Shown here piece by piece: positions 10,436-63,102 of a stretch of DNA of 64,000 bases. Made by a program: the position numbers and the translations under genes. Source of the stretch: Escherichia coli (GTDB lineage Bacteria > Pseudomonadota > Gammaproteobacteria > Enterobacterales > Enterobacteriaceae); the NCBI RefSeq assembly GCF_036507355.1, contig NZ_AP027877.1, one strand, 5' to 3'. Below the pieces are notes generated by a model. It did not search any database. It was not told the DNA's origin and saw only the letters and a list, made by a program, of their open reading frames with translations. How positions within the stretch are numbered: the first letter of the stretch is position 1; the number at the start of each line of letters is the position of its first letter.

Positions 10436-10470
10436 TGAATCGCCACGGGTTTAACAGACACCTCAGAGTC
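10436..10470 (+). repeat. IS left terminal inverted repeat (IRL)
   Basis: TGAATCGCCACGGGTTTAACAGACACCTCAGAGTC; pairs with the reverse complement of 11630-11664. Confidence 0.85.
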
Positions 10471-10498
10471 ATTTAAGATGGCTTAAAGAGAGGTGCCC

Positions 10499-10777
10499 AT
10501 GAGCGGTAAGCGTTATCCCGAAGAGTTTAAAATTGAAGCAGTCAAACAGGTTGTTGATCGCGGTTATTCTGTTGCCAGCGTTGCAACACGTCTCGATATC
10601 ACCACCCACAGCCTTTACGCCTGGATAAAGAAGTACGGTCCGGATTCTTCCGCTAATAAAGAACAGTCAGATGCTCAGGCCGAGATCCGCCGTCTCCAGA
10701 AAGAGCTGAAGCGGGTTACCGACGAACGGGACATATTAAAAAAAGCCGCGGCGTACTTCGCAAAGCTGTCCGACTGA
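10499..10777 (+). CDS. IS3-family transposase OrfA (helix-turn-helix / leucine-zipper part)
   Basis: ATG at 10499 with RBS AGAGAGG; MSGKRYPEEFKIEAVKQVVDRGYSVASVATRL...ERDILKKAAAYFAKLSD, typical IS3-family OrfA. Confidence 0.88.
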   Translation: MSGKRYPEEFKIEAVKQVVDRGYSVASVATRLDITTHSLYAWIKKYGPDSSANKEQSDAQAEIRRLQKELKRVTDERDILKKAAAYFAKLSD

Positions 10778-30169: not shown

Positions 30170-30263
30170 TGATGCCGCACGTAGGCCTGATAAGACGCGC
30201 CAGCGTCGCATCAGGCATCGTGTGCGAATGTCGGATGCGGCGAAAACGCCTTATCTGACCTAC
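30170..30263. repeat. REP/BIME-type repetitive extragenic palindromes between yacG and mutT
   Basis: GATGCCGCACGTAGGCCTGATAAGACGCGCCAGCGTCGCATCAGGCATC and GTCGGATGCGGCGAAAACGCCTTATCTGACCTAC, same family as the units after gcd. Confidence 0.7.
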
Positions 30264-30649
30264 AGACGTTTAAGCTTCGCAATTACCGGTTCATTGGCTG
30301 GCGGAAAATCATCGGCATTAAGACCGACCAGCGACATCCACTTACCGGGTTGCCCTTCTTTACCCCACGGCTCCCCTTCCCAGCTTTCGACCAGCCAGAA
30401 CCACAGAGTTATATGCCTGTCCGGGAATTCATATTCCAGTTTTTCAAATAGCGAAAAATGTTGTGGGGTAATCCCGACTTCTTCCTGAAGTTCACGCACC
30501 ACCGCCTGTTCCGGCGTTTCACCCATTTCAATTTTACCGCCGGGAAACTCCAGTTTATTCGCCATGTGCGCATCTGCTGCGCGACGCGTTATAAAGATTT
30601 CATTGTTCTCGTTGCGAATAATACCTACCGCAATTTGCAGCTTTTTCAT
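30260..30649 (-). CDS. mutT: 8-oxo-dGTP diphosphatase MutT (129 aa), Nudix hydrolase
   Basis: MKKLQIAVGIIRNENNEIFITRRAADAHMANKLEFPGGKIEMGETPEQAVVRELQEEVGI... (Nudix box). Confidence 0.95.
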   Translation of the reverse strand: MKKLQIAVGIIRNENNEIFITRRAADAHMANKLEFPGGKIEMGETPEQAVVRELQEEVGITPQHFSLFEKLEYEFPDRHITLWFWLVESWEGEPWGKEGQPGKWMSLVGLNADDFPPANEPVIAKLKRL

Positions 30650-33475: not shown

Positions 33476-34195
<720 letters not shown>

Positions 34196-34217: not shown

Positions 34218-35156
<939 letters not shown>

Positions 35157-35235
35157 CTATCCAACCGAAGTGTACTATACATTCGGCGGGCCAGTTTAGC
35201 ACAAAGAGCCTCGAAACCCAAATTCCAGTCAATTC

Positions 35236-36387
35236 TTAATCAGCTTGCTTACGCAGGAATGCTGGGATATCCAGATAATCCGGCTCTTTCGCAGTTTGCG
35301 GCGCATTGTCATTCACGACTTTAGCAACCGGCTTCTGCTCCTGGGTCAGCGGAGCCATCCCGTGCTGCTGGTAGCGATCCATCACTGGCTGCTGAACCTG
35401 CTTATTGGTCACCAGAGTGATTTCAGGACGTTTGTCCATGCCGATACCTGTCGCAACAACAGTTACGCGCAGCTCGTCATTCATATCCGGGTCAAGAGAA
35501 GTACCGATAACCACGGTCGCGTTGTCGGAAGCAAATGCACGGATGGTGTTACCTACCGTTTCGAACTCATCCAGACGCAGGTCGAAGCCCGCTGTGATGT
35601 TAACCAGCACGCCGCGTGCGCCAGACAGGTCGATATCTTCCAGCAGCGGAGAAGAGATAGCCATTTCAGCAGCTTCTTCCGCACGGTCTTCACCGCTTGC
35701 CACGCCAGAACCCATCATTGCGTAGCCCATTTCAGACATTACGGTGCGTACGTCTGCAAAGTCCACGTTCATCAAACCCGGACGAGTAATCAGTTCGGCG
35801 ATACCTTGCACAGCGCCTTTCAGTACATCGTTCGCTGCGCCAAACGCATCCAGCAGGGAGATACCACGGCCCAGAACTTTCAGCAGTTTGTCGTTCGGGA
35901 TAGTGATCAGAGAGTCCACATGCTTGGACAGTTCAGTGATCCCCTGCTCCGCGAATGCCATACGCTTCTTGCCTTCAAAGTTGAAAGGCTTAGTGACGAC
36001 GGCAACGGTCAGGATACCCAAATCTTTTGCCACTTCAGCGACGACTGGTGCTGCACCTGTACCGGTACCACCACCCATACCCGCAGCAATAAAGACCATG
36101 TCTGCACCTTCCAGCGCCGCACGCAGTGCATCGCGATCCTCATCAGCCGCATTGCGGCCAACTTCTGGATTAGCGCCAGCGCCCAGTCCTTTGGTGATAC
36201 CGCTACCGATTTGAATCGTCTGTCCAACCGCTGTTTTACGCAGCGCTTGTGCATCGGTATTTACCGCGAAGAATTCAACACCTTCAATGCGCTCACGCAC
36301 CATGTGTTCAACAGCATTACCGCCGCCGCCGCCGACGCCGATGACTTTAATCACCGCGTCATTGGTAAGTTCCATTGGTTCAAACAT
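35236..36387 (-). CDS. ftsZ: Cell division GTPase FtsZ (383 aa)
   Basis: [52 protein letters not shown]... (tubulin signature GGGTGTG). Confidence 0.98.
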
Positions 36388-36447
36388 AGTTTCTCTCCGA
36401 TTTGTGCCTGTCGCCTGAGGCCGTAATCATCGTCGGCCTCATAAAAA

Positions 36448-37710
36448 TTAAAACTCTTTTCGCAGCCAACTATTGAGTCGCTTGATCCACGAGCCAACTG
36501 ATGCTGTAACACGTTTTTCTACTTCAGCTTCACCGTTAAGATGTGACTCTTTCCCATAGTGAAGCAATCCCACCGCCGTCGAATAATACGGCTCCTGAGC
36601 ATAATCCGTTAAACCGGTAATGTTCAGCGGCGCGCCGATACGCACTTGCGTATGAAACACGCGCTGAGCACAGGCTGCAAGACCTTCGATCTGCGCTGCG
36701 CCACCGGTTAATACAATGCCTGCCGCCAGGTGATGTTTAACCCCTTGTTGGCGAAGCTTTTCCTGCAACTGCAATATCTCTTCGTTGACCAGGTTGAGCA
36801 GCTCGGTATAGCGCGGCTCGATCACCTCTGCCAGGGTCTGACGTTGCAGACTCCGCGGCGGACGACCACCTACGCTCGGCACTTCCACGCTCTCATCTTT
36901 TCCAACGATGGAACCCAGCGCACAACCGTGGCGAACTTTAATCGCTTCGGCGTCGCTTGGCGGCGTGCCAAAGGCGTAAGCGATATCACTGGTCACGACA
37001 TTGCCAGCATAAGGAATTACCTTAGTGTGGCGCAATGCCCCACCGGTATAAACGGCGATATCCATTGTACCACCACCGATATCGACGACGCAGACACCCA
37101 GTTCACGTTCATCTTCCGTCAATACCGAATAACTTGATGCCAGTCCGGCAAATATCAGTTGGTCAACTTTCAGCCCACAACGTTCAACCGCTTTGACGAT
37201 GTTTTTCGCCATATCGTTGTGACATGTGATCAGGTGCACTTTTGCCTGCATCCGCACGCCCGAAAGTCCTACCGGATTCTTGATCCCTTCCTGATAGTCA
37301 ATCGCATACTCTTGCGGGATCACATGCAGCACACGATGCTCATCGCGCACACGCACCGATTTCGCGGTATGGACGACGTTTTCCACATCTTCTTGCGTCA
37401 CTTCTTCTTCAGAAATCGGCACCATACCAATTTCATTCTGGCAGCTGATGTGCTTACCAGAAAGCGCCAGATATACCGAAGAGATCTGACAATCTGCCAT
37501 CAATTCTGCCTGGTCAATGGCGCGTTGTACGCACTTGACCACGGATTCGAGGTCGTTCACCCCGCCTTTATCCATACCACGCGACGGGCAGCTGCCCACG
37601 CCAATGATATTGACCATACCGTCGGGCAGAACTTCCCCTACTAAAGCGGCAACCTTCGCGGTACCAATCTCCAGTCCTACTACCAGTTTTCTGTCCGTCG
37701 CCTTGATCAT
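36448..37710 (-). CDS. ftsA: Cell division protein FtsA (420 aa)
   Basis: [57 protein letters not shown]... Confidence 0.97.
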
Positions 37711-38537
37711 TGTTGTTCTGCCTGTGCCTGATTTTGTTGCTGAGTAGATTCCTCTGGCGGCAATGGCGCCCAGCCTACTGCCGCTCCAGAGTCATAACGC
37801 AAATCAACGTAGCTAATCCGTTTGCCATCGGTTTGCGCCTGCTGCTGTAAAACCGGATAAAGTTCTACAAAGCGAGCCAAACGTTTCATCGTATCGCCCC
37901 GGCCAAGATTGAGCTTAATATCGTTATTCAGCGTCAACTGCCAGGAACGCCGCGCGGTCATCGCCGCTTCCTTCAGAGTAAATCTGTCCTTTGCCAGCAT
38001 CTGCCCCATTTCGCGATAGCCCTGCAACACTTCATTGGCGCTGCCTTCCGGGCCATACAGCATTGGAAGCACCTGCTTGCTGGTGCGATCTGGCGGCACG
38101 CTGAAGGTGTTTCCTTCCGCGTCTACCATATGTTGATCATTCCACCGCGCAATCGGCACATATTCAACCAGATGAATCTTCAATTCATCAGGCCACTGCT
38201 TTCTGACGCTCACCTGCTTAATCCACGGCAGGCGTTGTTCTATTTGCGTCTGGATGATGTTGACATCCTGGGTCATAAAGGTACCTGGCTCACCCAATGC
38301 CAGGATCGACTGCCGGATATCGTCATTACGCGTGTAATGGCGTTCACCGGTCAACACCAGCTTTGAGAGCGGCAGGCGTTGCGCATCTTCCATCCAGCCC
38401 AACACGACCCAGCCGCTCACCAACACTGTCGTTAAAACGGTCAGCAGGAAAAGGATCCCCGCCAGACGCGTTCCATTATTGCGGCGAGAAGAAACCTCTT
38501 CTTCGCTGTTTCGCGTGTTCAGAGCAGCCTGCGACAT
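37707..38537 (-). CDS. ftsQ: Cell division protein FtsQ (276 aa)
   Basis: [60 protein letters not shown]...; overlaps the ftsA start by 4 bp. Confidence 0.96.
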
Positions 38538-38538
38538 A

Positions 38539-40927
<2,389 letters not shown>

Positions 40928-40980
40928 TCTTTACGCCATTAACTTCTTAAATTCATACGATGCAAAAGGCATCGCTACAA

Positions 40981-42048
40981 TTACGCCCGGGCAGCCCGGC
41001 TCACTTCATTTGCCACTCGCTCGGTGGCATCCGGAATGGATGCAGCGCGGGCGCGTTCTGCCATGGTTAATAAGGTTTCTCGCGACCACCCGGCCAGGGT
41101 GTTGGCGACAGCATCCACGCTAAGCTGTGGCTGCTCGATAATTTTGGCTGCGCCCGCTTTTTCCAGCGGTAGCGCATTCCAGTATTGCTGGCGGTCTTTA
41201 TGTTGAAACGGCACAAACAACGCCGGTAGTCCTGCCGCGGCGATTTCACTCACCGTTAAAGCACCGGAGCGGCAAACGACGACATCCGCCCACGCATACG
41301 CCGCCGCCATATCATCAATAAATTCAGTCACTTTATGCTGCGGTTGCCCCGCTTCGGCATACGCCTGTTCAACGGATTGTTGCGAACCTTTGCCGCTCTG
41401 ATGCCAGATAGTGACTGAATCACCCAGTTTCGCAGCAACCTGCGGCATTGTCTGGTTAAGAATGCGTGCGCCCTGGGAACCACCCACTACCAGCACACGA
41501 ACCGGACCTTCACGTCCAGCCAAACGTTGCTGCGGCAACGGTAGCGCCAACACATCGGTACGCACCGGGTTACCCACCACTTCCGCATTGGGGAAAGCAC
41601 CTGGAAACGCCTGCATCACTTTGGTGGCAATCTTCGCCAGCCATTTATTGGTTAAGCCCGCAATACCGTTTTGTTCATGAAGTACAACCGGAATGCCTAA
41701 CGACCACGCAGCCAGACCACCAGGACCTGATACGTAGCCGCCCATACCGAGCACCACGTCAGGTTTGTACGCTTTCATAATCGCCCGCGCCTGACGCCAG
41801 GCATTGAAGATACGCAGCGGCGCAGCTATCAGTGCTTTTATACCTTTTCCACGCAGACCAGAGATACGAATGAAATCAATTTCGATGCCATGTTTTGGCA
41901 CTAAGTCCGCTTCCATACGGTCGGCAGTCCCCAGCCAGCGAACTTGCCAACCCTGAGCCATTAGATGGTGCGCAACCGCCAGTCCCGGGAATACATGTCC
42001 ACCGGTTCCGCCTGCCATCACCATTAATCGCTTTCCTTGACCACTCAT
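40981..42048 (-). CDS. murG: Lipid II synthase, UDP-GlcNAc:undecaprenyl-PP-MurNAc-pentapeptide GlcNAc transferase (355 aa)
   Basis: [60 protein letters not shown]... Confidence 0.97.
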
Positions 42049-43289
42049 CGTGAACCTCGTACAAACGCCTGCGCTTTCTCCAGACGCGTTTCATAATCAA
42101 TACGCAACAGCATCATGATGGCTGTCGACATAATCAGTAAGCTCGAACCACCGTAACTGATCAGCGGCAATGTCAGACCTTTGGTCGGTAACATCCCCGC
42201 CGCCGCGCCTACGTTAACCAGCGCCTGGAAGCTAAACCAGATGCCAATGGAACAGGCGAGAAAACCGGAAAAACGGTGGTCAATTTCTAACGCTTTGCGG
42301 CCAATCGACATCGCACGAAAAGCGACGAAGAATACCATTAAAAGTGCCAGCACCACACCGACATACCCCAGTTCTTCGCCGATAATGGCGAAAATAAAGT
42401 CAGTGTGCGCTTCCGGCAGATACTCCAGTTTTTGTACCGAGTTACCTAAACCTTGTCCCCACAGTTCGCCGCGACCAAACGCCATCAGCGATTGCGTTAA
42501 CTGATAGCCGCTGCCAAAGGGATCTTCCCACGGGTTCCAGAATGCAGTAACACGGCGGATACGGTACGGTTCGGCGAGTATCAGCAACACAACCGCTGAA
42601 ATGCCCATACCGATAATGGCAATGAACTGCCACAATTTCGCTCCCGCCAGGAACAACATCGCCAGCGTAGTCACAAACAACACCACCACCGTACCAAGGT
42701 CTGGCTGTGCCAGCAGTAACACTGCCAACACCAGAATCACGCCCATCGGTTTCAGGAAGCCGCGCAGGTTATTACGTACTTCGTCGCCTTTACGCACCAG
42801 ATAGTTGGCGATATAGCAAAACAGCGACAGTTTTGTCAGCTCCGCAGGCTGGATACGCAGCAAACCGAGATCGATCCAACGCGATGCCCCTTTAACCGAG
42901 CTCCCCACTACCAGCACGATCATCAGCAGGATGATAGATCCGAGCAGCATCGTGGCACTGTAGCGTTGCCAGAACTCCATCGGCAGACGCAGCGTAATGA
43001 TCGCCAGAATAAACGCCAAAATCAGATAGACACCATCACGCTTCGCGAAGAAGAACGGATCGTTGGTTAAGCGTTGCCCTATGGGCATTGACGCCGAGGT
43101 CACCATGATAAAGCCAATCGCCGCGAGGCCGAAGGTCAGCCACAGTAAGGTGCGATCGTACATGATCAGGCTGTCGGTATCTTTTTCCCGCGAGCCCATC
43201 ACCCAGCCCTTTAGCGCCGTGGAGATCCAGACCAGGATACTGAATCCTGGCAGGCGCGGCATTTTCAGGCGAGGGAGAGATAAACGCAT
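42045..43289 (-). CDS. ftsW: Peptidoglycan glycosyltransferase FtsW (414 aa); an in-frame ATG one codon upstream (43292) is an alternative start
   Basis: [60 protein letters not shown]...; the start shares one base with the murD stop (TGATG). Confidence 0.95.
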
Positions 43290-44605
43290 CAACCTAACTC
43301 CTTCGCCAGACGGGCAAACTCATTGCCTCGTTGTTCAAAGTTCTTGAACTGATCAAGGCTGGCACAGGCCGGGGAGAGCAGAACCATATCGCCCGGCTGA
43401 ACACGCGGAGCCAGCAAGCGCATCGCCTGTTCCATAGTTTCGGTTTGTTCTGCCACTTCCGGGCGTAGCGCCGCCAGCTGCGCGCCGTCACGACCGAAAC
43501 AATACAGACGTACGTTATCGCCATTCAGGTAACGCGCTAGTGGGCTAAAGTCCGCCGATTTACCATCGCCGCCCAGCAACAAATGCAGCGTGCCGTCTAC
43601 GTGCAGGCCATTCAGCGCCGCTTCCGTACTGCCGACGTTGGTCGCTTTTGAATCGTTAATCCAACGTACGCCGTTATGCTCCAGCACAACTTCAAAGCGA
43701 TGCGGCAGACCAGTGAATGTGGTTAATGCTTTCAGGCTGCTGGCGCGCGGCAAACCAGCTGCGTCTGCCAGTGCCAGTGCTGCGAGCGCATTGGTGTAGT
43801 TATGCTGCCCGGAAAGTTTCATTTCTTTCACGTTCAGCACTTTCTCGCCTTTCACCCGCAGCCAGGTTTCGCCCTGCTGATGATTCAGGTGATAGTCACC
43901 CATGTTGACGCCAAAGCTGACGCAGCGTTCATCCGCACCGCGAATCGGCATTGTTAAGGCATCATCAGCATTAACCACGCAAACTTTCGCGTTTTCGTAA
44001 ATGCGCAGTTTTGCTGCACGATACTGTTGTAAACCAAACGGATAGCGATCCATATGATCTTCAGTCACGTTCAGAATGGTCGCTGCTACCGCCTGTAAGC
44101 TGGAGGTGGTTTCCAGCTGGAAGCTCGACAGTTCCAGCACGTATAGTTCACACTCATCATCCAGTAGCATCAACGCAGGCAGGCCAATATTGCCACCCAC
44201 ACCAACGTTAACCCCCGCCGCTTTCGCCATTTCACCCACTAGCGTGGTGACCGTGCTTTTGCCGTTAGAACCGGTAATCGCCACAATCGGTGCTTGTGCT
44301 TCGCGACAGAACAGCTCGATATCGCCAACGATTTCGATTCCGGCATCAGCGGCAGCGCTTAAGGATGGATGCGCCAGTGCAATACCGGGACTGGCGACAA
44401 TCAGATCTGCCGCCATCAGCCATTCATCATTCAGACTGCCCGTGTGGCGTTCTACGGCTTCGGGTAATTTATCCAGGCCAGGCGGTGTCATACGCGTATC
44501 CATAACGCGCGGCGTCACACCGCGAGCGAGGAAAAAGTCCACGCAGGAAAGCCCGGTGAGGCCCAGGCCGATAATGACAACATTTTTACCCTGGTAATCA
44601 GCCAT
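43289..44605 (-). CDS. murD: UDP-N-acetylmuramoyl-L-alanine--D-glutamate ligase (438 aa)
   Basis: [60 protein letters not shown]... Confidence 0.97.
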
Positions 44606-44607
44606 GA

Positions 44608-45690
44608 TTAACGTACCTTCAGCGTTGCCAGACCAATCAGGACCAGCATCAGCGAAATAATCCAGAAACGCACAATGACGCGCGGTTCCGGCCAGCCTTT
44701 CAGTTCATAGTGGTGATGAATCGGTGCCATGCGGAAAATACGTTGTCCGCGCAGTTTAAAGGAGCCGACCTGCAGGATGACAGAAAGCGTTTCTACCACG
44801 AACACGCCCCCCATAATCACCAGCAGGAATTCCTGACGAAGCAGTACGGCGATAATGCCTAACGCACCACCTAACGCCAGCGAACCTACATCGCCCATAA
44901 AGACCTGCGCCGGATAGGTGTTAAACCACAGGAAGCCCAGTCCTGCCCCGACTATCGCGGTACAGACAATAACCAGTTCCCCGGCGTGTCGCAGATACGG
45001 TATGTGTAAATAGCTGGCAAAGTTCATGTTGCCGGTCGCCCACGCCACCAGCGCAAAACCACCGGCGACAAATACGGTCGGCATAATTGCCAGACCGTCA
45101 AGACCATCGGTCAGGTTTACCGCGTTGCCAGTACCCACAATGACGAAGTAAGCCAGCAGAATGTAGAACAGCCCCAGTTGCGGCATCACATCTTTAAAGA
45201 ATGGGACCACCAGCTGCGTTGCGGGCGTGTCTTTGCCAACAAGGTACAGCGCGAAGGCGACACCCAGCGCAATGACCGACATCCAGAAATACTTCCAACG
45301 AGCGATCAACCCTTTGGTGTCTTTACGCACTACTTTGCGATAATCATCAACAAAGCCAATAACACCGTAACCTACCAGCACCACCAACACGCACCAGACG
45401 TACGGATTGGACGGGTAAGCCCACAGCAGTACGGAGATCACAATCGCCGTCAGGATCATAATCCCGCCCATGGTCGGCGTACCGCGCTTGCTGAAGTGTG
45501 ATTCAGGACCGTCGTTACGCACCACCTGACCAAAGGAAAGTTTTTGCAAATGAGCAATCATACGCGGGCCCATCCACAATGAGATGAACAGCGCGGTCAG
45601 CAGGCTGACGATGGCGCGAAACGTCAGATAGGAAAAGACGTTAAAGCCGGAATAATATTTGACCAAATGTTCGGCCAGCCAAACTAACAT
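44608..45690 (-). CDS. mraY: Phospho-N-acetylmuramoyl-pentapeptide transferase (360 aa)
   Basis: [60 protein letters not shown]... Confidence 0.97.
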
Positions 45691-47042
45691 GTCCCATTCT
45701 CCTGTAAAGCGCGTACTACCTCTTCCATGGCGGCACTACGTGAACCCTTAACTAAAATCGTAATTACCTGTTGCTCAGCAATCAGTGATTTAAGACGCGT
45801 AATTAACGCAGTTTTATCAGCAAAATGTTCGCCAACGCCGCTGGCGGTGCTGATAGCATGGCTTTGTTTACCCACGCTTAACACGCGGTCAATACCAGCA
45901 GCTTTTGCCGCCTCGCCCACCTGTACATGGCAGGCTTCGCTTTCAGCGCCCAGTTCCGCCATATCGCCCACCACCAGCACGCGGTAGCCCGGCATTTCAG
46001 CCAGTACCTGAACAGCGGCGGTCATTGAACCGACATTGGCGTTGTAGGAGTCGTCGAGCAGCAACTGGTTTTCTGCCAGTTGGATGGGGAACAGACGGCC
46101 TGGAACAGCTTTCAGATTTGCCAGCCCCGCTTTGATAGCATCAAGCGTTGCGCCCACGGACATGGAGAGCGCAGCGGCTGCCAGCGCATTCGCAATATTG
46201 TGACGCCCCGGCAACGGCAGCAGAACATCCACGCTACCGGTTGGGGTTTGCAGGGTAAATTCCGTACCGTGCGAGGTCACATGGATATTGGTGGCGGTGA
46301 AATCGCTGTTGGCGGCATTGGGTGAGAAACGCCACACTTTGCGTGAGCCAATTACGCTCTGCCAGTTCAGCCAGTCGTTGTTGTCGGCGTTCATAATGGC
46401 GATACCGTTTTCCGGCAGGCCGCTAAAGATTTCACCTTTCGCTTTCGCGACCCCCGCAAGCGAGCCAAAACCTTCCAGATGTGCCGCTGCCAGGTTGTTG
46501 ACCAGCGCCGCTTCCGGGCGAGTCAGACTCACAGTCCAGGCTATTTCGCCCTGATGGTTCGCGCCAAGTTCAATAACTGCGTAATCGTATTCCGGCGTTA
46601 AGCGCAACAGCGTCATCGGTACACCGATGTCGTTGTTGAGATTGCCTGCCGTATAAAGCGTGTTGCCGCACTGGCTTAAAATCGCCGCCGTCATCTCTTT
46701 AACGGAGGTTTTGCCGGAGGACCCCGTCAGAGCAACCACGCGCGCCGGAACTTGCTGGCGAACCCATGCAGCCAGTTCACCAAACGCCAGACGCGTATCC
46801 TTGACGATTAACTGCGGCAGGTCGATGTCCAGCGGACGGCTAACCAGTAGTGCGCCTGCGCCGCCAGCTTTCGCCTGGTCGGCAAAATCATGAGCATCGA
46901 AACGTTCGCCTTTCAGGGCAACAAACAGGCAGCCCGGCGTCAGTTTTCGGGTATCAGTGGTTACAGCATCAAGGGTGATATCTGCACCTTGCAGTTCACC
47001 GTTGAGAATGTCGGTAAGTTGGCTAAGGGTTACGCTAATCAT
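45684..47042 (-). CDS. murF: UDP-MurNAc-tripeptide--D-Ala-D-Ala ligase (452 aa)
   Basis: [60 protein letters not shown]... Confidence 0.97.
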
Positions 47043-48526
47043 GCAATCACCCCCAGCAGACGCGCCACCGTGACGCGATCGGAGTAGTCCAGACGCTGAT
47101 TGCCAACAATCTGGTAATCTTCATGGCCTTTGCCCGCGACCAGCACCACATCGTTCTCTTTAGCCTGCATAACGGCGCAAGTCACCGCTTCAGCACGGCC
47201 TTCCATCACTTTGGCATGTCCGGCATCTAACATTCCCGCCAGAATATCGTTGATGATGGCACGCGGTTCTTCGGTACGCGGGTTATCGTCCGTCACCACC
47301 GCCACGTCAGCAAACTCTTCGGCAATTGCGCCCATCAGTGGACGCTTACCTTTATCGCGATCGCCACCACAGCCAAAGACACACCACAGCTTGCCCGCAC
47401 AGTGCAGACGCGCCGCCTGTAAGGCTTTTTCCAGTGCATCCGGCGTATGCGCGTAATCCACCACCACCGTCGGTTTGCCTGGCGCAGTGAACACTTCCAT
47501 ACGTCCGCAAACCGGTTGCAGACGCGCGGCGGTTTTCAACAGATCAGCCAATGGATAGCCGAGTGCCAACAGTGTCGCCAGCGCGAGCAGCAGGTTGCTG
47601 ACGTTAAAAGCGCCCATCAGATGGCTTTCAATTTCGCCATCGCCCCAACTTGAGCTAAAGCGAATCGTCGCACCGCTGTCGTGATAGTTCACGTCGATCG
47701 CTTTTAACCAGCGTCCGTGACAGTTCGGATTGATATGATCTTCCATTGATACCGCAACCGCGTCCGGCAGTTTTGCCAGCCAGCGGCGGCCCACTTCATC
47801 GTCGGCGTTAATAATCGCCTGACCGCAATGATGTTCAGAATAAAGCAGCCATTTCGCAGCTTCGTAGTGTTCCATATCACCATGATAATCAAGGTGATCG
47901 CGGCTTAAGTTGGTAAAGACCGACGCTGCAAATTTCAATGCCGCCACACGGTGCTGTACCAGCCCGTGGGAGGAAACTTCCATTGCGCAAAAAGTCGCGC
48001 CCTGATCCACCAGCCCCGCCAGCTCGTGCTGAACATCGACTGCGGAACCGGTAGTATTTTCTGTCGGGATCACTTTCCCAAGCAGACCGTTACCAACGGT
48101 GCCCATTACCGCGCTGGTTTCGCCAAGCAGTTGGCTCCACTGCGCCAGCAGCTGGGTCGTCGTGGTTTTGCCGTTGGTGCCCGTTACGCCCACGAGACGT
48201 AAATTGTCAGAGGGTTCATGGTAAAAGCGGCCCGCCAGTGCAGATAAACGCTCGTTGAGCTGGCTGAGATAGATGACCGGTACGCCGTGCATTTCACGGA
48301 TTTCACCGTCGGTCGCCTCATCTTTCGCCTCTGCAATAATGGCAGCCACACCTTGCGCTATCGCCTGCGGGATATATCGACGCCCGTCCGCCTGATGACC
48401 TACTACAGCTACAAAGAGATCGCCCGCCGCAGCCACACGGCTGTCGAGTGTCATCTCTCGCAGTGCTCGCGAAGGTGCGTCTGGCACCCACGGAGCAAGA
48501 AGGTCGCGCAAATTACGATCTGCCAC
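47039..48526 (-). CDS. murE: UDP-MurNAc-L-Ala-D-Glu--meso-diaminopimelate ligase (495 aa)
   Basis: [60 protein letters not shown]... Confidence 0.97.
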
Positions 48527-50279
48527 CTGTCCCCTCGCCTTGATTAATCACAAATTCATTTTTATCGCCCGTTGTCAGCGCATCCGGCTCGATGTTCATG
48601 GTACGCAATACGCCGCCCATGATGGCACCAAAGACCGGCGCGGAAACGGCGCCGCCGTAGTATTTACCCGCCTGCGGATCGTTGATAACAACAACCAGCG
48701 CGAAGCGCGGCTGACTCGCAGGCGCAACGCCTGCGGTATAAGCAATATATTTATTGATGTAGCGACCGTCCGGCCCGACCTTTTTCGCGGTACCGGTTTT
48801 AATGGCGATACGATAGCCTTTAATCGCCGCCTTCACGCCGCCGCCGCCCGGTAGCGCCACGCTTTCCATCATATGCACCACGGTGCGGACAATGGATTCC
48901 GGGAAGACACGTTCACCGGGAACCGGGGGGTCAACTTTGGTAATCGACAGTGGGCGATAAATGCCGTAGCTGCCGATAGTTGCGTAGACTCGCGCTAACT
49001 GTAACGGTGTTACCATTAGCCCGTAGCCGAAAGAGAAGGTGGCCCTCTCTATGTCAGACCACCGTTGTTTTTGAGGATATAAGCCACTGCGTTCTCCGAC
49101 CAACCCCAAATTGGTCGCTTTTCCCAGTCCAAAACGTGAGTAAGTATCTACTAACGCTGAGGACGGCATCGCTAACGCCAGCTTGGAAACACCGACGTTA
49201 CTCGACTTCTGTAATACCCCGGTCAGGGTTAATTCGCTGTAGCGTGCCACGTCTTTGATTTCGTGGCCGTTAATTCGATAAGGAACGGTATTGAGTACCG
49301 AGTTTTCCCGCACCACGCCACGTTGCAACGCGGTCATCACCACCATCGGTTTAACCGTTGAGCCCGGTTCAAACACGTCGGTGATGGTACGGTTACGCAT
49401 CGCCTCTTTCGGCGTGCCACTCAGATTGTTAGGGTTGTATGATGGGCTGTTAGCCATCGCCAGCACTTCACCGGTGTTGACATCCACCAGCACGGCGCTA
49501 CCAGATTCAGCCTTGTTAAAGGCCACCGCGTTGTTCAGTTCGCGATAAACCAGCGCCTGCAGGCGTTCATCAATACTCAGCGCCAGGTTGTGCGCAGCCT
49601 GGCTGTCAGTAGAAGAAATATCTTCAATTACGCGACCATAGCGGTCTTTACGCACAATGCGCTCACCCGGCTGCCCGGTAAGCCATTTATCGAAACTCTT
49701 CTCGACGCCCTCAATCCCCTGGCTATCGACGTTAGTAAAGCCAATGAGGTGAGCAGTCACTTCGCCGGATGGATAATAACGGCGAGATTCTTCACGCAGA
49801 TGAATCCCCGGCAGTTTCAGTTTTTTGATGTAGTCCGCCATGTCAGGGTTTACCTGACGCGCCAGATAAATAAAGCGCCCTTTCGGGTTGGCGTTAATGC
49901 GGGCTGAAAGCTGATCCAGCGGAATATTGAGCGCGTTAGCCAACGCCTTCCAGCGGTCACCGACGCTGATACCGCCAGCGTCATGCACTTCTTTCGGGTC
50001 AGCCCAAATCGCTTTTACCGGCACGCTCACCGCTAACGGGCGACCAGAACGGTCAGTAATCATGCCGCGGGAGGTGGAAACTTGCTGAACGCGAAGAGAA
50101 CGCATGTCGCCCTCTTTCACCAGCATATCCGGGGAGATAACTTGTAACCACGCTACGCGTCCGAGCAGAAAAGCCAGCGCCAGGAGAATACAGCCGCATA
50201 ACAACGCAAAACGCCAACTGATAAAGTTGGCATGTTCTTCCTGACGTTTTGGTTTCTGCGTTTTCGCCGCTGCTTTCAT
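48513..50279 (-). CDS. ftsI: Peptidoglycan D,D-transpeptidase FtsI (PBP3), 588 aa
   Basis: [60 protein letters not shown]... Confidence 0.97.
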
Positions 50280-50294
50280 GCGTCGCGTTTATCC

Positions 50295-50660
50295 TTATTT
50301 TTGCACTACGATATTTTCTTGTGACGGATCAACATGCTGCATTTGCAGCTTTTCCGTGGCGATCCTTTCCACCCGGCTATGGTCGCCGAGCGCATTCTCT
50401 TCAAGGATCAGGTTGCGCCATTCAATGTCTAAAGCATCTCGCTCCAGCACCAGTTGTTCGCGCTGAGCGGTCAGTAAACGGGTATGGTGCGCCGTGGTTA
50501 CCACGGTCACCGCCGTCAAAATAATGCAAATGAACAGGCAGAGTGGCAGCTTCCCAAATCGCAAAAGATCGTCACCGATAACACCAGGCAATGCATGGCG
50601 CTCGTGGCTTCCCATCGATCCTTTAACTTTGCTTAGAGCTTCTGTCACTCTGCTGATCAT
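50295..50660 (-). CDS. ftsL: Cell division protein FtsL (121 aa)
   Basis: [60 protein letters not shown]... Confidence 0.95.
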
Positions 50661-51598
50661 GCGTTCGTCCTCTCTGCAATACGCAGAACTGAACTACGGG
50701 CACGAGGGTTCTCAGCCACCTCTTCTTCGCCCGGCATTAACTTGCCTAGTGCTCGCAGCTGACGGCCACCCAGTTTTTTGAGCTGCTCTTCAGTCATCGG
50801 TAACCCTGCCGGAACTTGCGGACCGCGGCTGTTTTCACGCATAAAACGTTTCACAATACGGTCTTCCAGCGAGTGGAAGCTGATGATCGAAAGCCGCCCA
50901 CCCGGGGCCAGCACGTTGAGCGAGCTTTTTAGCGCCTGCTCTATCTCCTCCAGTTCACTGTTTACCCAAATGCGCACCGCCTGGAAGGTACGGGTCGCGG
51001 GATGTTTAAACTTATCTTTCACCGGCGTTGCAGCAGCCACGACTTCCGCCAGTTCTTTGGTGCGGGTCATCGGCTGTTCGCGGTTACGCTCGACAATGGC
51101 GCGGGCAATGCGTTTGGCAAAACGCTCTTCACCATAGGTTTTCAATACCCAGGCGATATCGGCTTCTTCTGCGGTTTGTAGCCATTCAGCGGCTGACTGC
51201 CCACGGGTTGGGTCCATACGCATGTCCAGCGGACCATCGCGCATAAAGGAAAAGCCGCGTTCAGCATCATCAAGTTGCGGTGAAGAGACACCAAGATCGA
51301 GGAGAATGCCGTCGATCTTGCCGATAAGATCGCGCTCGGCAACGTATTCGCCCAGCGCGGAAAAAGGTCCGTGGATGATGGAGAAGCGCGGATCATCAAT
51401 AGTCTTCGCAACGGCGATAGCCTGCGGGTCGCGATCGATCGCCAGCAAACGCCCCTCTTCGCCAAGCTGCGAGAGGATCAGACGTGAGTGACCACCGCGA
51501 CCAAAAGTCCCATCAATGTAGATGCCATCAGGACGGATATTGAGGCCATTAACGGCTTCATCCAGCAGCACCGTAGTATGTTTATAGTTTTCCATCAT
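50657..51598 (-). CDS. rsmH: 16S rRNA m4C1402 methyltransferase RsmH/MraW (313 aa)
   Basis: ORF 50657..51727 trimmed to [46 protein letters not shown]... Confidence 0.95.
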
Positions 51599-51599
51599 T

Positions 51600-52058
51600 T
51601 TATAGAGACAAGTCCTGCAGTCGCTCCGATAAGTCTCCGGTAGCCAACTGCTCTGCGTCGATATCTTCCTTGACCTGTTGATGCCAGGTTGTTTCATCCC
51701 ACAGCTCAAACTTGTTGAACTGTCCAACCAGCATCACTTCTTTTGTCAGCCCGGCATGTTGCCGCAGTACTGGCGCGATTAACAATCGACCTGCGCCATC
51801 CATCTGACATTCGCTGGCATGACCTAACAGTAGGCGCTGCACACGGCGCTCAACCGGGTTCATGCTCGACAGACGCGATAATTTTTGCTCGATAATTTCC
51901 CATTCAGGCAGGGGGTAAAGCAGCAGGCACGGGTGATGAATGTCAATGGTGCAAACCATTTGACCGGCAGCGTTCTCAAGCAGCTGTTCCCGATAACGGG
52001 TAGGCACTGATAAGCGCCCTTTGCTGTCGAGATTGACTAACGTTGCTCCCCGGAACAT
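51600..52058 (-). CDS. mraZ: Transcriptional regulator MraZ (152 aa)
   Basis: ORF 51600..52094 trimmed to [60 protein letters not shown]... Confidence 0.95.
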
Positions 52059-52075: not shown

Positions 52076-52103
52076 TTCCCACTTTGCCCCACAATTTCCC
52101 ACT
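52076..52103 (-). promoter_or_regulatory. MraZ operator: three direct GTGGG repeats with 10-bp spacing upstream of mraZ
   Basis: Minus strand reads GTGGGAAATTGTGGGGCAAAGTGGGAA; matches the reported MraZ binding repeats (TGGGN type) in the mra promoter region. Confidence 0.65.
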
Positions 52104-52109
52104 GAAAGG

Positions 52110-52139
52110 AGTTTACGGAGCGGAGGAAAAGCTTGTCAA
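52110..52139 (-). promoter_or_regulatory. Candidate Pmra sigma-70 promoter of the dcw cluster (-35 TTGACA, -10 TAAACT, 18-bp spacer)
   Basis: Minus strand CTTGACAAGCTTTTCCTCCGCTCCGTAAACTCC; hexamers read from the sequence, position consistent with the known mraZ promoter. Confidence 0.6.
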
Positions 52140-60825: not shown

Positions 60826-62842
<2,017 letters not shown>

Positions 62843-62875
62843 TTTGTACACCGTCCGGTACTCAATCGCCAAAAA

Positions 62876-63102
62876 GAAAAAAGCCAGCAGATAATCACTG
62901 CTGGCGTGGCGATTAACACCAATACTCAGTCACACATGATGTCCGCAAATCAGTAGTCAGAATGACTCCCCTCCCACTGCATCAGTTCTTCAAGCATGGT
63001 TAATCGTTGTGGGACGCTTAACCAACGCAACCAGCACAACTGCGCTGTCGCGGTAAAATAGTGCTGATAAAACTGACGCATGGGGCACCTCCTTGCTTCA
63101 TC
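62876..63102 (-). ncRNA. sgrS: Small RNA SgrS (glucose-phosphate stress sRNA; dual-function, encodes SgrT); ends approximate
   Basis: Minus strand starts GATGAAGCAAGGAGGTGCCCCATGCGTCAG..., contains the ptsG-pairing seed GAGTATTGGTGT and ends in a terminator hairpin CCAGCAGTGATTATCTGCTGG plus U-tract; sits 67 bp from the divergent sgrR start, as in K-12. Confidence 0.88.
62950..63081 (-). CDS. sgrT: Small protein SgrT (43 aa) encoded within SgrS
   Basis: C-terminal part of ORF 62950..63249: MRQFYQHYFTATAQLCWLRWLSVPQRLTMLEELMQWEGSHSDY, with an AGGAGG RBS upstream. Confidence 0.85.
   Translation of the reverse strand: MRQFYQHYFTATAQLCWLRWLSVPQRLTMLEELMQWEGSHSDY

Follow-up and report, generated by a model that had tools for sequence, protein, structure and literature searches.

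Introduction

The dcw cluster of Escherichia coli is a textbook feature whose arrangement is already known. It forms one long transcription unit, running from the promoter Pmra upstream of mraZ to the terminator of lpxC. MraZ auto-represses Pmra at TGGGN repeats, and internal promoters in ddlB, ftsQ and ftsA boost ftsQAZ. In strain K-12 MG1655 the cluster extends from b0081 (mraZ) to b0095 (ftsZ), plus b0096 (lpxC), at NC_000913.3 89634–107474. The published count is 16 cluster genes, the last of which is envA, i.e. lpxC (PMC5089854). A described variant of the cluster carries a 12-bp duplication in ftsI, which inserts four residues after P333-YRIN in PBP3; this YRIN/YRIK insertion and its effect on susceptibility are described in PMC8210206. 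Here we describe the dcw cluster in a 64,000-nt stretch of E. coli DNA (contig NZ_AP027877.1, assembly GCF_036507355.1), called the window below. The analysed span, mraZ to ftsZ, is window positions 35236–52058 (16,823 bp) on the minus strand. MG1655 (NC_000913.3 87000–109500, with its annotation) served as the reference and is referred to as K-12.

Gene content and order

The span is the standard E. coli dcw cluster, intact and ordinary (probability about 0.97). In the list of open reading frames (ORFs) between 33.5 and 54.5 kb, a continuous run of minus-strand ORFs has sizes that fit E. coli dcw genes. Aligning K-12 to the reverse complement of the window with blastn gives one collinear alignment of 22,501 columns with 99.0% identity and 221 mismatches. 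Its sole indel is 1 bp in the lpxC–secM spacer, beyond mraZ–ftsZ; between mraZ and ftsZ this whole-region alignment has zero indels. With the window aligned to 74–146 kb of K-12, the cluster falls within a 32.6-kb collinear block (30182–62836) that contains 3 gap characters.

A first-pass annotation, made from the letters of the window, had called the cluster complete, uninterrupted and tightly packed, free of inserted elements, and a negative result of low interest. It proposed a whole-region alignment to K-12 as the check. The alignment described above is that check and supports an intact cluster; collinearity, zero indels and curated family models for each gene bear out the description, and the low-interest negative result stands. 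The annotation also placed the genes in canonical order at 35236–52058, which we confirm on the minus strand. Its count of sixteen genes from mraZ to ftsZ has to be lowered to 15, although every one of them is present. The usual count of 16 includes envA/lpxC, which lies 100 bp past ftsZ and is outside the span, so mraZ–ftsZ holds 15.

The 15 genes are, in order, mraZ, rsmH, ftsL, ftsI, murE, murF, mraY, murD, ftsW, murG, murC, ddlB, ftsQ, ftsA and ftsZ. When the K-12 gene table is projected onto the window, all 15 have the length, start codon and stop codon found in K-12, and the K-12 alignment reveals no internal stop, frameshift or inserted element in the 15 genes of the span. As a check independent of K-12, we compared the 15 proteins and LpxC with NCBIfam models: 16 of 16 score above the curated cut-offs, mostly of equivalogs. 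At the nucleotide level the 16 genes are 98.3 to 99.8% identical to their K-12 counterparts.

The first part of the cluster, all on the minus strand, comprises mraZ (51600–52058, 152 aa; TIGR00242, 225 bits against a cut-off of 98), rsmH, also called mraW (50657–51598, 313 aa; TIGR00006, 452 bits), ftsL (50295–50660, 121 aa; NF008040, 213 bits), ftsI, which encodes PBP3 (48513–50279, 588 aa; NF011685, 1316 bits), murE (47039–48526, 495 aa, GTG start; NF001123, 895 bits), murF (45684–47042, 452 aa; NF008041, 916 bits), mraY (44608–45690, 360 aa; TIGR00445, 539 bits) and murD (43289–44605, 438 aa; TIGR01087, 437 bits). It continues on the same strand with ftsW (42045–43289, 414 aa; NF008042, 852 bits), murG (40981–42048, 355 aa; TIGR01133, 377 bits), murC (39452–40927, 491 aa; TIGR01082, 611 bits), ddlB (38539–39459, 306 aa; NF002378, 436 bits), ftsQ (37707–38537, 276 aa; NF008043, 558 bits), ftsA (36448–37710, 420 aa; NF007009, 913 bits) and ftsZ (35236–36387, 383 aa; TIGR00065, 472 bits), whose protein is the K-12 protein. 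Outside the span follows lpxC/envA (34218–35135, minus strand, 305 aa; TIGR00325, 544 bits). All 16 orthologues of an E. coli-type dcw cluster (mraZ to envA/lpxC) are thus recognisable, 15 inside the span and lpxC outside it, in canonical order on one strand and with no foreign insertion.

In this cluster mraZ encodes the MraZ repressor and rsmH a 16S rRNA methyltransferase. MurC, MurD, MurE, MurF, DdlB, MraY and MurG make the precursors of peptidoglycan in the cytoplasm and at the membrane (the lipid II pathway), and FtsL, FtsI/PBP3, FtsW, FtsQ, FtsA and FtsZ are the divisome proteins.

Two candidate defects were considered and rejected. Hidden frameshifts or pseudogenes are incompatible with lengths, starts and stops that all equal those of K-12. 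Inserted elements or small spacer indels are incompatible with the absence of indels and with spacers that match K-12. The K-12 cluster has the same genes, order, strand and lengths, and also the same starts, stops, overlaps and gaps, internal intergenic sequence, ftsO and lpxC terminator region. It differs by 165 coding substitutions (~1%), 12 amino acid changes and one A>C in the Pmra spacer. The result is of value only as a control on quality and annotation: this essential region is intact, and annotation can be transferred directly from K-12.

Junctions and packing

The cluster is tightly packed, neighbouring genes overlapping or abutting at their stop and start codons. We read the sequence of each of the 14 junctions directly. 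Nine are overlaps of 1–14 nt: rsmH–ftsL (4 nt, ATGA), ftsI–murE (14 nt), murE–murF (4 nt), murF–mraY (7 nt), murD–ftsW (1 nt), ftsW–murG (4 nt), murC–ddlB (8 nt) and ftsQ–ftsA (4 nt) are joined by stop and start codons that share sequence, and at murD–ftsW the ftsW ATG and the murD TGA share a single base (TGATG). Three junctions are gaps of 1–2 nt (mraZ–rsmH, 1; mraY–murD, 2; ddlB–ftsQ, 1), and the remaining gaps are 15 nt (ftsL–ftsI), 53 nt (murG–murC) and 60 nt (ftsA–ftsZ). Non-coding bases number 132 of 16,823, so that 99.2% of the span is coding. The overlaps named in the first-pass annotation, including the one-base murD/ftsW overlap, are all right, but two of its gap lengths need correction: murG–murC was given as 50 bp and measures 53 bp, and ftsL–ftsI was given as 13 bp and measures 15 bp.

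Overlaps at 9 of 14 junctions together with three gaps of 1–2 bp would allow translational coupling and leave no space for insertions that are non-polar on essential genes. Chance does not account for this packing, since the reference has exactly the same one. The 60-nt ftsA–ftsZ spacer contains an 8-bp hairpin, GAGGCCG...CGGCCUC (36416–36441, minus strand), with a fold of -15.4 kcal/mol and z = -2.6.

Transcription signals

Upstream of mraZ, a Pmra-like sigma-70 match on the minus strand (52110–52139) reads TTGACA, 18 nt, TAAACT. This is a consensus match only, at 10 of 12 positions, and the best one found in a scan of 18.7 kb. Between it and mraZ are three direct repeats, TGGGA-aattg-TGGGG-caaag-TGGGA (52077–52101, minus strand), with 5-nt spacers and the same sequence as in K-12. 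MraZ is reported to bind TGGGN repeats (Eraso et al. 2014). The three repeats have the form of an MraZ operator and are a putative one. Both the Pmra-like sequence and the operator-like repeats are therefore in place upstream of mraZ, and promoter activity and MraZ binding are predicted from them. In the 103 nt that begin just before the promoter and end at the start codon of mraZ, the only difference from K-12 is an A>C at 52122.

At the other end, lpxC is followed by an intrinsic terminator (34139–34190, minus strand), a GACUGG...CCAGUC hairpin trailed by a G and nine U. Its fold has a free energy of -25.3 kcal/mol (z = -5.3), and 0 of 200 shuffled sequences were equally stable. This strong hairpin fits the published account, in which transcription can reach a Rho-independent terminator at envA (PMC5089854). 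Within the cluster, terminator-like motifs number 20, against 21.6 +/- 4.7 in shuffled sequence; there is no excess, and the count agrees with the absence of an internal terminator but is no proof of read-through. By analogy with the published system, the cluster would be read as a unit from Pmra, repressed by MraZ, and would end at the hairpin and U-run past lpxC.

Variation relative to K-12

Between mraZ and ftsZ the window differs from K-12 at 165 nucleotides, all in coding sequence. Among the changed codons, 152 are synonymous and 12 nonsynonymous, a signature of strong purifying selection. All internal spacers of the cluster are identical to K-12. Segments without any difference include the ftsL–ftsI, murG–murC, ftsA–ftsZ and ftsZ–lpxC spacers, ftsO, and the final 400 nt of ddlB, the part of the known cluster that holds the ftsQ promoters. 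The small RNA (sRNA) ftsO is inside ftsI (49034–49207, minus strand; mapped from K-12 annotation b4810) and matches K-12 at 174 of 174 nt.

The 12 amino acid substitutions are Y41H in MraZ; I332V in FtsI; I137T, T277I and E278D in MurE; L419S in MurF; A151V in MraY; V352A in MurG; R445Q in MurC; G34A and A120V in DdlB; and E150D in FtsQ. In an exact-sequence look-up, eight of the nine variant proteins, including MraZ with H41, were each found on at least 1000 contigs, so K-12 carries the minority allele at those sites.

The FtsI of the window has 588 aa and reads VPYRINGHE, without the four-residue YRIN/YRIK insertion, where the same stretch in strain EC9 reads IPYRINYRINGHE. EC9 (NZ_CP194953.1), of the YRIN/YRIK lineages, has the same 15-gene cluster and junctions as the window. 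It differs by the 12-bp ftsI duplication, which gives a protein of 592 aa (PYRINYRINGHE) in place of 588 aa (PYRINGHE) and a span of 16,835 bp. The duplication is missing, which rules out a resistance-type PBP3 insertion such as those associated with lower susceptibility to beta-lactams.

Codon 332 of ftsI (49284–49286, minus strand) is next to the insertion site. I332V appears as a PBP3 polymorphism in clinical genomics papers, with speculative links to beta-lactam minimum inhibitory concentrations (PMC12216380, PMC12291914). We considered it as a special mutation and rejected this, since at least 1000 contigs carry this very FtsI protein and an isolate from lettuce has I332V too. Its commonness argues for a lineage marker, and I332V is probably a neutral one.

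These differences raise the question of whether an intact-looking cluster could hide a functional lesion (a cryptic pseudogene, a damaging substitution or a resistance-type PBP3), which would make the word 'complete' an overstatement. We regard this as extremely improbable. The material for it is the set of 12 amino acid differences from K-12, among which are FtsI I332V, adjoining the YRIN/YRIK site and loosely tied to the inhibitory concentrations cited above, and a rare DdlB allele with G34A and A120V. Yet no gene has a frameshift or premature stop, every length equals that of K-12, and all proteins are far above the curated cut-offs. The eight variant proteins on at least 1000 contigs are alleles for which K-12 is in the minority, the lettuce isolate Ec1120 has all of the variants but DdlB G34A and one MurC site, and the 12-bp YRIN duplication is absent from FtsI. 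A null allele is implausible because the genes are essential.

We therefore keep to the reading of an ordinary, intact dcw cluster. What is observed at this locus is which genes are present and in what order, their intactness, the geometry of the junctions, internal non-coding sequence identical to that of K-12, and strong purifying selection. Nothing was counted as evidence against the dcw identification itself, and the points that weigh against the reading are limits. First, the A>C at 52122 falls in the 18-nt spacer between TTGACA and TAAACT. Second, the published 38-nt 5' untranslated region (PMC5089854) puts the transcription start near 52096 in the window, and the -10-like hexamer (52115–52110) is ~14 nt upstream of that start. 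This offset makes the exact promoter assignment uncertain, the hexamers being a consensus match and not a mapped promoter. Third, the combination of DdlB G34A and A120V is rare, the exact protein being found on 7 contigs. Finally, statements on expression, MraZ binding and translational coupling draw on the literature.

There is a slim chance that DdlB G34A, with A120V (codon 34, 39358–39360; codon 120, 39100–39102; minus strand), or the A>C at 52122 may alter the supply of D-Ala-D-Ala or dcw expression. The DdlB and 52122 changes are single, conservative and present in viable strains. A phenotype from the DdlB allele or from the promoter-spacer change, if real, would be of minor interest.

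Comparison with other E. coli genomes

We searched 5,426 complete E. coli genomes with positions 35236–52058 using megablast. The query matched 5,424 of them, with a best identity of 99.5%, and in 5422/5426 at least 80% of the query is matched at one place. Two of the 5,426 genomes labelled complete have no dcw match, and three matching places are on records labelled plasmids. For a base rate, 40 records were sampled at even steps down the whole megablast ranking. The span is exactly 16,823 bp, as in the window, in 35 of the 40. Three sampled spans are 16,835 bp, and the one of these that was checked has the YRIN duplication; one span is 16,822 bp. An uninterrupted dcw cluster of invariant length is the norm in nearly every E. 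coli genome.

One of the 40 sampled genomes, E. coli B27 (NZ_AP027424.1), has an apparent tandem triplication of a ~1.6-kb mraY–murD' unit with a frameshifted murD, which splits the dcw cluster. Either an artefact of assembly or a genuine amplification could account for it.

The nearest complete genome is that of Ec1120 (NZ_CP126598.1), the lettuce isolate, which matches the window at 99.5% over 16,823 bp in one ungapped piece. Thirteen of the 15 proteins are identical. Ec1120 lacks DdlB G34A, and residue 337 of MurC is A in Ec1120 and E in the window. The two sequences differ at 79 positions, clustered in murC and ftsZ: 19 fall in 39193–40192 (murC) and 11 in 35193–36192 (ftsZ), with 0–2 differences in most other 500-bp bins.

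Such patchiness could mean that the notable feature of the locus is mosaicism, parts of the cluster having come from other E. coli lineages through homologous recombination. The spread of gene-by-gene identity to K-12, from 98.3% to 99.8%, and a best complete genome that is only 99.5% identical fit this idea. However, patchy divergence of this size is usual in the core genome of E. coli and leaves every gene and junction here unchanged, and the support for mosaicism consists of difference counts. In addition, a contig derived from the Sequence Read Archive (SRA), Logan SRR31122001_64, matches the window at 99.98% between ftsI and mutT (3 mismatches over 19,264 bp), which suggests that the lineage is simply sparse among complete genomes. 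With 99.5% for the best complete genome against 99.98% for the SRA contig, we conclude that the lineage is public but sparsely represented among finished genomes. Mosaicism is thus a possible but rather doubtful account of what sets this locus apart, and the standard intact cluster is the reading we retain. In the leu–ilv flank, no complete E. coli genome is closer to the window than 99.4%.

RNA family match and antisense reading frame at ftsZ

Two features at the downstream end of the cluster could be taken for an extra, unannotated gene: a 'PssrA' sRNA at the ftsA–ftsZ junction, or a protein from a 393-codon ORF antisense to ftsZ. We give this almost no credence, for the reasons below.

The Rfam family PssrA (RF02797) matches 36379–36468 on the minus strand over the full length of the model, with 105.5 bits against a gathering score of 69, well past the threshold for membership. 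The match takes in the 60-nt spacer together with the 21 nt that end ftsA and the 9 nt that open ftsZ. No other RNA family was found in the region by Rfam at E<=0.1, and ftsO has no Rfam match. The published pssrA is elsewhere, in the CP0121–ipaJ intergenic region of the virulence plasmid pCP301, at ~103842–103931 (PMC3071730). The model does not represent that locus: it has no match at pCP301 102800–105000, even at E<=10. In a plasmid collection, the junction sequence is found only in records that themselves carry ftsA/ftsZ and is absent from true plasmids. Thirteen records have it. Among the 12 listed, 11 are large (0.27–5.4 Mb) E. coli or Klebsiella records that match the whole ftsA–ftsZ junction; 8 of these have ftsA/ftsZ annotated there and 3 are chromosome-sized and unannotated at the matching position. 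The twelfth, a 4.1-Mb Proteus record, has a 40-nt partial match.

A PssrA sRNA at the ftsA–ftsZ junction was accordingly rejected as a database artefact, given that the model misses the published locus, and the RF02797 match is no evidence for an sRNA gene here. Most simply, the seed of RF02797 would have been cut from the S. flexneri chromosome using plasmid coordinates, a step that we infer. The K-12 equivalent of the match, 105224–105313, is ~1.4 kb off the plasmid coordinate numbers. RF02797 appears to model the chromosomal ftsA–ftsZ junction, and a spurious 'plasmid sRNA' would then be flagged in every E. coli and Shigella chromosome.

The antisense ORF (35245–36426, plus strand, 393 codons) runs across all of ftsZ and is open in K-12 too. 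It sits in the codon-aligned antisense frame, where stops can arise only from sense TTA, CTA and TCA codons. ftsZ has none of these codons, whereas every other gene of the cluster has 3–17, which makes the ORF a side effect of codon usage in ftsZ. Twelve codons differ from K-12; all 12 changes are synonymous in ftsZ, but 11 of the 12 are nonsynonymous when read in the antisense frame, so the ORF is not under coding constraint. On these two grounds, a coding ORF antisense to ftsZ was rejected. The region of the antisense RNA StfZ (36193–36744, plus strand; mapped from K-12 annotation b4840) has 1 difference from K-12 in 552 nt.

Other features of the window

The window does contain one inserted element and a gene loss, both outside the dcw cluster. 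An insertion sequence (IS) of the IS3 family (10436–11664, 1,229 bp) is inside yacH and is absent from K-12 at that site. Its terminal inverted repeats are imperfect and 38 nt long (TGAATCGCCACGG...), and the products of its two reading frames match HTH_Tnp_1 (orfA) and rve (orfB). One IS per 64 kb corresponds to ~0.26 expected in 16.8 kb, so that the absence of an IS from the dcw cluster is unremarkable even before essentiality is considered.

The gene setA is missing: 40 bp of the window (62837–62876) replace 1,261 bp of K-12 (77593–78853) between sgrS and leuD. The aceF–lpd intergenic region (14045–14074) is 30 bp long, against 147 bp in K-12, and the mutT–yacG intergenic region (30182–30264) has a short zone of indel or repeat difference from K-12. 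The length differences at aceF–lpd and mutT–yacG probably reflect the presence or absence of repetitive extragenic palindromic (REP)-type elements.

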